This document shows positions 1-311 of a stretch of DNA of 311 nucleotides, piece by piece. The stretch comes from Escherichia coli (GTDB lineage Bacteria; Pseudomonadota; Gammaproteobacteria; Enterobacterales; Enterobacteriaceae), in assembly GCF_003334355.1 (NCBI RefSeq), contig NZ_QOWP01000116.1, one strand, 5' to 3'. A program made the translations under genes and the position numbers. Position 1 is the stretch's first letter. Each line of letters starts with the position of its first letter. The notes under the pieces are model-generated. The model worked only from the letters and a program-made list of their open reading frames with translations. It was not told the DNA's origin and made no database searches.

Positions 1-165
1 GCGCGATTTAGCCCCGACGTATCCCCACTGTTCGTCCATTTCCGCGCAGACGATGACGTCACTGCCCGGCTGTATGCGCGAGGTTACCGACTGCGGCCTG
101 AGTTTTTTAAGTGACGTAAAATCGTGTTGAGGCCAATGCCCATAATGCGGGCGGTTGCCCGGCAT
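1..165 (-). CDS. insB: IS1 insB / insB' frame (catalytic part of the InsAB' transposase), first 55 codons; 3'-partial, continues beyond position 1
   Basis: Manual minus-strand translation in the -1 frame relative to insA gives [55 protein letters not shown]..., closely matching the InsB N-terminus as I recall it. The frame is open from an upstream in-frame TGA at 187..189, and the first ATG is at 163..165, which is the conventional annotated insB start. Established knowledge: the functional transposase is the InsAB' fusion made by frameshifting, not independent initiation at this ATG. Overlaps insA across 84..165. Confidence 0.85.
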
Positions 166-311
166 CCAACGCCATTCATGGCCATATCAATGATTTTCTG
201 GTGCGTACCGGGTTGAGAAGCGGTGTAAGTGAACTGCAGTTGCCATGTTTTACGGCAGTGAGAGCAGAGATAGCGCTGATGTCCGGCAGTGCTTTTGCCG
301 TTACGCACCAC
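84..311 (-). CDS. insA: IS1 InsA (transposition inhibitor / transcriptional repressor), C-terminal 75 codons plus TAA stop; 5'-partial, N-terminus lies beyond position 311
   Basis: The six-frame track ORF translates to ...[74 protein letters not shown], which matches IS1 InsA residues ~17-91 as I recall them. The second cysteine pair of the N-terminal zinc-finger-like motif (C-x2-C) is encoded at 255..266, and the C-terminal half carries the helix-turn-helix region. The track's initial M is an artefact: 309..311 is an internal GTG (Val) codon. Stop codon TAA is at 84..86 (plus-strand tta). Confidence 0.92.
102..108 (-). other. Programmed -1 ribosomal frameshift slippery heptamer A-AAA-AAC (A6C) joining insA to insB'
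   Basis: Plus-strand gtttttt at 102..108 is AAAAAAC on the minus strand, in the insA frame as TTA-AAA-AAC (108..110, 105..107, 102..104). Slipping back one base gives AAA-AAA-CTC and continues into the InsB-like frame (..LKKLRPQSV..). The insA TAA stop lies 16 nt downstream of the heptamer, at 84..86. Confidence 0.82.

Follow-up and report, generated by a model that had tools for sequence, protein, structure and literature searches.

InsA, the A6C frameshift and the fusion protein InsAB' of the insertion sequence IS1 have been known since about 1989-1991. The element contributes to genome plasticity, inactivates genes and helps resistance genes to spread. A weak promoter in the left inverted repeat (IRL) drives insA and insB', and InsA, in which a zinc finger is combined with a helix-turn-helix (HTH), represses this promoter (PMC12428005). 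Infrequently, at about 2% (Escoubas et al., 1991, as cited in PMC12428005), ribosomes slip by -1 at A6C and produce the 232-residue DDE transposase InsAB'. Replacement of A6C by an in-frame fusion increases transposition about 1000-fold (PMC12428005), and the function of the A6C motif in -1 frameshifting is described in the same paper.

The stretch of DNA analysed here (the window, 311 nt from Escherichia coli) is almost certainly an internal segment of IS1, corresponding to the reverse complement of IS1 nt 104-414. The element is thus one already known, with insA, the A6C frameshift and InsAB' all previously described. Megablast of the window against 5,426 complete E. coli genomes gave rise to full-length, reverse-strand matches at 72,921 places in 4,965 of the genomes, with identities of 93-99.7%. 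At least 80% of the query was covered in 9,278 E. coli records, and the best place was at least 95% identical in 8,399. Identity reached 100% in a single one of the 9,391 matching E. coli records, that of E. coli PSS-12 (locus L001), where the copy is annotated as 'IS1-like element IS1A family transposase, programmed frameshift'.

Matches extend well beyond the E. coli genomes. At least 5,000 plasmid records match the window, those listed all at 95% identity or higher, from hosts that include Escherichia, Klebsiella, Enterobacter, Salmonella, Citrobacter, Shigella and others; the top plasmid matches among those listed are 99.7% identical. Phage P1, in the phage collection, carries a resident IS1 that is 98.4% identical to the window. 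The PGAP label on the matching copies is 'IS1A family', and from the InsA sequence of the R100 IS1R we take the window to be the R100/plasmid-type isoform. A different IS family as the best match is ruled out, the best matches being to IS1. The preliminary description had placed the window wholly within IS1 and had named a near-full-length, high-identity, reverse-strand match to IS1 as the check; such matches were obtained in E. coli, plasmids and phage P1, and the 100% match to an annotated IS1, together with its placement in a 768-bp element, bears the assignment out.

That element was delimited in L001, where IRL starts at 1398 and the right inverted repeat (IRR) ends at 2165 (768 bp). The window occupies 1501-1811 of L001, so that a window coordinate x converts to IS1 nt 415-x. 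The repeats that bound the element are:

Outside the window, bounding the 768-bp IS1: terminal inverted repeats GGTGATGCTGCCAACTTACTGAT / GGTAATGACTCCAACTTATTGAT, imperfect, about 23-30 bp.

The canonical left repeat GGTGATGCTGCCAACTTACTGAT begins at 1398 of L001, and IRL and IRR lie at the expected distance both in L001 (100% identical to the window) and in a second copy, L002 (99.7%). The coding sequence (CDS) annotated in L001 is an intact, full-length, joined, frameshifted transposase of 698 nt. With the re-read base this amounts to 232 codons and a stop, in agreement with the 232-residue InsAB' of PMC12428005.

Both ends of the element fall outside the window, as do the promoter and most of the catalytic domain. 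The position of the ends leaves room for an origin of the window in a truncated, rearranged or inactive IS1 remnant, or in an arm of a composite transposon (e.g. Tn9). Many E. coli IS1 copies are pseudogenes or partial (the CFT073 copy, for example, is annotated 'frameshifted'), a 35-nt IS1 fragment was among the matches (H70), and four of the six K-12 copies are essentially non-transposing (PMC12428005). Such an origin is nevertheless unlikely, since both frames are intact within the window, the slippery motif is perfect, and the sole 100% database copy is the intact 698-nt frameshifted CDS in its 768-bp element.

The flanks of the two matching copies were also inspected. An 8-9-bp target-site duplication is absent from L001 (1389-1397 vs 2166-2174, CACAAAACG vs GCCAGTAAC) and, at the same positions, from L002 (TAAAAATGC vs CTTCTTTCC). 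The TPR gene beside IS1 in L001 is an N-terminally truncated pseudogene. The flanks of L001 and L002 would fit an IS1-mediated deletion, or recombination of one copy with another, rather than a simple insertion.

All of the coding features lie on the minus strand of the window:

87..311, minus strand: insA codons 17-91 (open reading frame and translation; NCBIfam NF033558 transpos_IS1, E = 8.6e-23).
252..311, minus strand: second half of the InsA zinc ribbon, residues 17-36 (Pfam PF03811 Zn_ribbon_InsA).
102..233, minus strand: InsA HTH, residues 43-86 (Pfam PF12759 HTH_Tnp_IS1).
84..86, minus strand: insA stop codon TAA (IS1 nt 329-331), at column 226 of the isoform alignment and invariant in it.
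1..105, minus strand: insB' frame after the -1 shift, InsAB' residues 86-120, running on past the window.
1..57, minus strand: first 19 residues of the DDE_Tnp_IS1 catalytic domain (Pfam PF03400).

In the insA frame, no stop interrupts the reading from 311 until the TAA at 86..84 (75 codons); the -1 (insB') frame is free of stops between 186 and 1. Jointly the two cover every base of the window. In L001 the insA CDS starts 48 nt upstream of the window, which leaves 16 codons outside; placed in this way, InsA comprises 91 residues as judged by the position of its stop codon. Most of insB' lies outside the window.

The Pfam search was run on the frameshifted (-1) fusion product. Because the window begins at codon 17, only model positions 16-35 of 35 of the zinc ribbon are matched (E = 1.6e-9); this portion includes a C-x2-C (...YLCSHCRK...) and also scores 35.5 bits against the NCBIfam model for the IS1/IS1595 Zn-binding domain (NF050000; cutoff 28). 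The HTH, common to InsA and InsAB', is nearly complete (model positions 1-44 of 46, E = 7.9e-29), and of the DDE domain model positions 1-19 of 131 fall inside the window (E = 4.4e-6). The NF033558 profile matches both frames consecutively, at positions 10-81 in insA and 75-111 in the insB' peptide (E = 3e-6 for the latter).

The two frames are joined at a slippery sequence, functionally the most notable feature of the window and one that the preliminary description had not named:

102..110, minus strand: programmed -1 ribosomal frameshift site TTAAAAAAC (IS1 nt 305-313), a single exact match.
108..102, minus strand: A6C motif within TTAAAAAAC, preceded by TT (IS1 nt 307-313).

The site occurs once in the window and in 0 of 200 shuffles; the insA stop follows 16 nt downstream of it. 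The preliminary description had accounted for every base by overlapping insA and insB' genes on the minus strand; this holds, with a refinement as to the overlap, since the stretch decoded in both frames is predicted to span only about 25 nt (108..84), from A6C to the insA stop.

We aligned the window with seven IS1 copies (IS1A-type, IS1B-type, IS1X3 and three IS1F-like; 92.8-100% identity). Neither the slippery motif nor the insA stop varies among the aligned isoforms. The alignment has 32 variable columns. Scoring used the insA frame for 22 of them and the insB' frame for 11, with one column counted under both frames. In the insA frame, the 22 changes upstream of the motif comprise 16 synonymous and six non-synonymous ones; read in the insB' frame, nearly all of these upstream changes are non-synonymous or nonsense. 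From the motif onward the pattern is reversed, with all 11 substitutions synonymous in the insB' frame, including the one between the motif and the insA stop, and non-synonymous or nonsense in the insA frame. The phase of substitution thus flips at the motif, which indicates that purifying selection follows insA up to A6C and insB' beyond it. As read from the aligned copies, this flip is the signature that a functional long product in the form of the -1 fusion InsAB' should leave. Between 186 and 111, upstream of the motif, the open insB' frame is not coding: the isoform substitutions there reveal no coding constraint. The flip at A6C illustrates programmed frameshifting clearly by comparison of isoforms and is no discovery.

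A pseudoknot has been suggested in the literature. In our analysis the 96 nt that begin at the slippery site and run downstream, folded as RNA with a tool that ignores pseudoknots, were no more stable than shuffles (z = +0.26), so that a strong stimulatory hairpin in this stretch finds no thermodynamic support.

The features of the window fit the following scheme. A single weak promoter at the left end, outside the window, would transcribe insA and insB'. Most ribosomes would stop at the insA TAA (86..84) and release the 91-residue InsA, whose zinc ribbon and HTH would bind the IS1 ends; InsA would repress the promoter, compete with the transposase and inhibit transposition. In a small fraction of ribosomes a one-base backward slip on A-AAA-AAC (108..102) would switch translation to the insB' frame, yielding the 232-residue InsAB' DDE transposase, with the same DNA-binding N-terminus as InsA and a catalytic domain that begins at about 57..1. 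The frequency of slipping would set the InsA:InsAB' ratio and so keep transposition rare. The IS1 identity, the frames, the domains, the invariant slippery motif and the switch of selection from insA to insB' are direct observations of the present analysis; the literature (PMC12428005 and papers cited there) is the source for the frameshift event, for InsA as a repressor and for DDE catalysis.

The window differs from the commonest isoform at a sole nucleotide:

137, minus strand: rare SNP, GTT to ATT, InsA/InsAB' V75I (IS1 nt 278), inside the HTH domain.

At IS1 nt 278 the window has A, and the six non-identical isoform rows of the alignment (five distinct sequences) have G. Among E. coli records the SNP is found in the best-matching copy of one only (PSS-12; 1 of 9,391), and it is absent from the top plasmid matches (99.7%) among the matches listed. 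The replacement is conservative and probably neutral.

Within insA we also found an inverted repeat:

199-211 with 298-310: inverted repeat of 13 nt (IS1 nt 105-117 with 204-216), 12 of 13 positions (92%) complementary.

The repeat brackets 86 nt within insA and, as RNA, would close a 113-nt domain. To our knowledge there is no literature on it. That it forms a functional RNA or DNA structure, modulating for example InsA translation or mRNA stability, is very unlikely in our assessment. The complementarity of the arms is rarer than expected by chance, with an equally good repeat in 3 of 300 dinucleotide shuffles, and the fold of 195-311 is more stable than that of most shuffles (z = -2.15; 4 of 200 equally stable), both of which would suit such a structure. 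The isoform alignment, however, revealed no covariation in the stem: 11 of the 12 pairs never vary, and the one pair that does vary is lost in the IS1F-like isoforms (G.A, alignment columns 8/107), with no compensating change. Moreover, both arms encode protein, which accounts for their conservation, and with several features screened a 1% chance event is unremarkable. Given the number of features screened and the coding constraint on both arms, the repeat is probably fortuitous. It is highly improbable that the stem (IS1 nt 105-117 with 204-216) tunes InsA/InsAB' output or that V75I alters end-binding and IS1 activity; either effect, if true, would add only a little to what is known of so familiar an element.

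The preliminary description had also held that nothing in the window suggests an undescribed defence, toxin or regulatory system. Searches of Rfam and for promoters, terminators and plus-strand genes agree with it. An Rfam scan of both strands, with E values up to 10, returned no family at or near threshold; the match to Hrs13 (12.5 bits against a gathering score of 52, E = 1.8) is a chance match. Scans of both strands for sigma-70 promoters and intrinsic terminators found none. The plus strand contains two short open reading frames:

53..130, plus strand: open reading frame of 25 aa, no NCBIfam match.
124..216, plus strand: open reading frame of 30 aa, no NCBIfam match.

These two frames and the weak, sub-threshold Hrs13 match are what could be cited for a separate gene or a regulatory RNA encoded antisense to insA/insB'. 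Such a product has next to no likelihood: the frames lack a family match and show no coding signature in the isoform substitutions, a promoter-like site occurs on neither strand, Hrs13 falls far under its threshold, and the minus-strand frames explain all of the positions at which the isoforms differ. Because the two minus-strand frames account fully for the substitution pattern, nothing points to a second system. A mutational analysis of the IS1 open reading frames by Jakowec and colleagues in 1988 is said to have found that only insA and insB are required. The value of the outcome is that of a negative result only: where new systems are sought, the window can be masked as IS1 and set aside.

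The architecture of IS1 described in PMC12428005 is the same as that of the window. Copies labelled IS1A family by PGAP are 99.7-100% identical to the window in nucleotide sequence over all 311 bases and share with it the insA/insB' layout, the A6C motif, the stop codon and the domain set. The IS1B-type copies of E. coli K-12 are 98.7% identical and share the architecture, with four substitutions relative to the window (alignment columns 175, 195, 198 and 201), one of which is InsA L81F. Three of these changes, including L81F, are clustered within the 10 nt just upstream of the slippery site (window 114-117, columns 195-201). The K-12 copies in question hardly transpose (PMC12428005).

The IS1F-like and IS1X3 isoforms (from E. 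coli O145 RM9872, 7_12_30A and CFT073, and from plasmid pZBEC21_03) are more distant, at 93-96% identity. They carry 12-23 substitutions relative to the window, nearly all of them synonymous in the translated frame, with InsA replacements T52K, T69S and I80V; the slippery motif and the insA stop are unchanged. In E. coli 7_12_30A the IS1F-like copy (L006) splits the diguanylate cyclase gene dgcZ, the halves of which (1-498 and 1263-1507) are annotated as pseudogenes; this is a simple insertional inactivation.

The closest parallel outside IS1 is with IS3 (OrfAB) and similar elements, in which a DNA-binding upstream open reading frame is fused to a DDE open reading frame by a -1 slip on an A-rich heptamer, and in which the upstream product is a regulator, like InsA. 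The IS3-type elements differ from IS1 in that they encode a different protein family, are much larger and have well-defined stimulatory structures. The proteins encoded in the window fit the IS1-specific Pfam and NCBIfam models, not the IS3 models.
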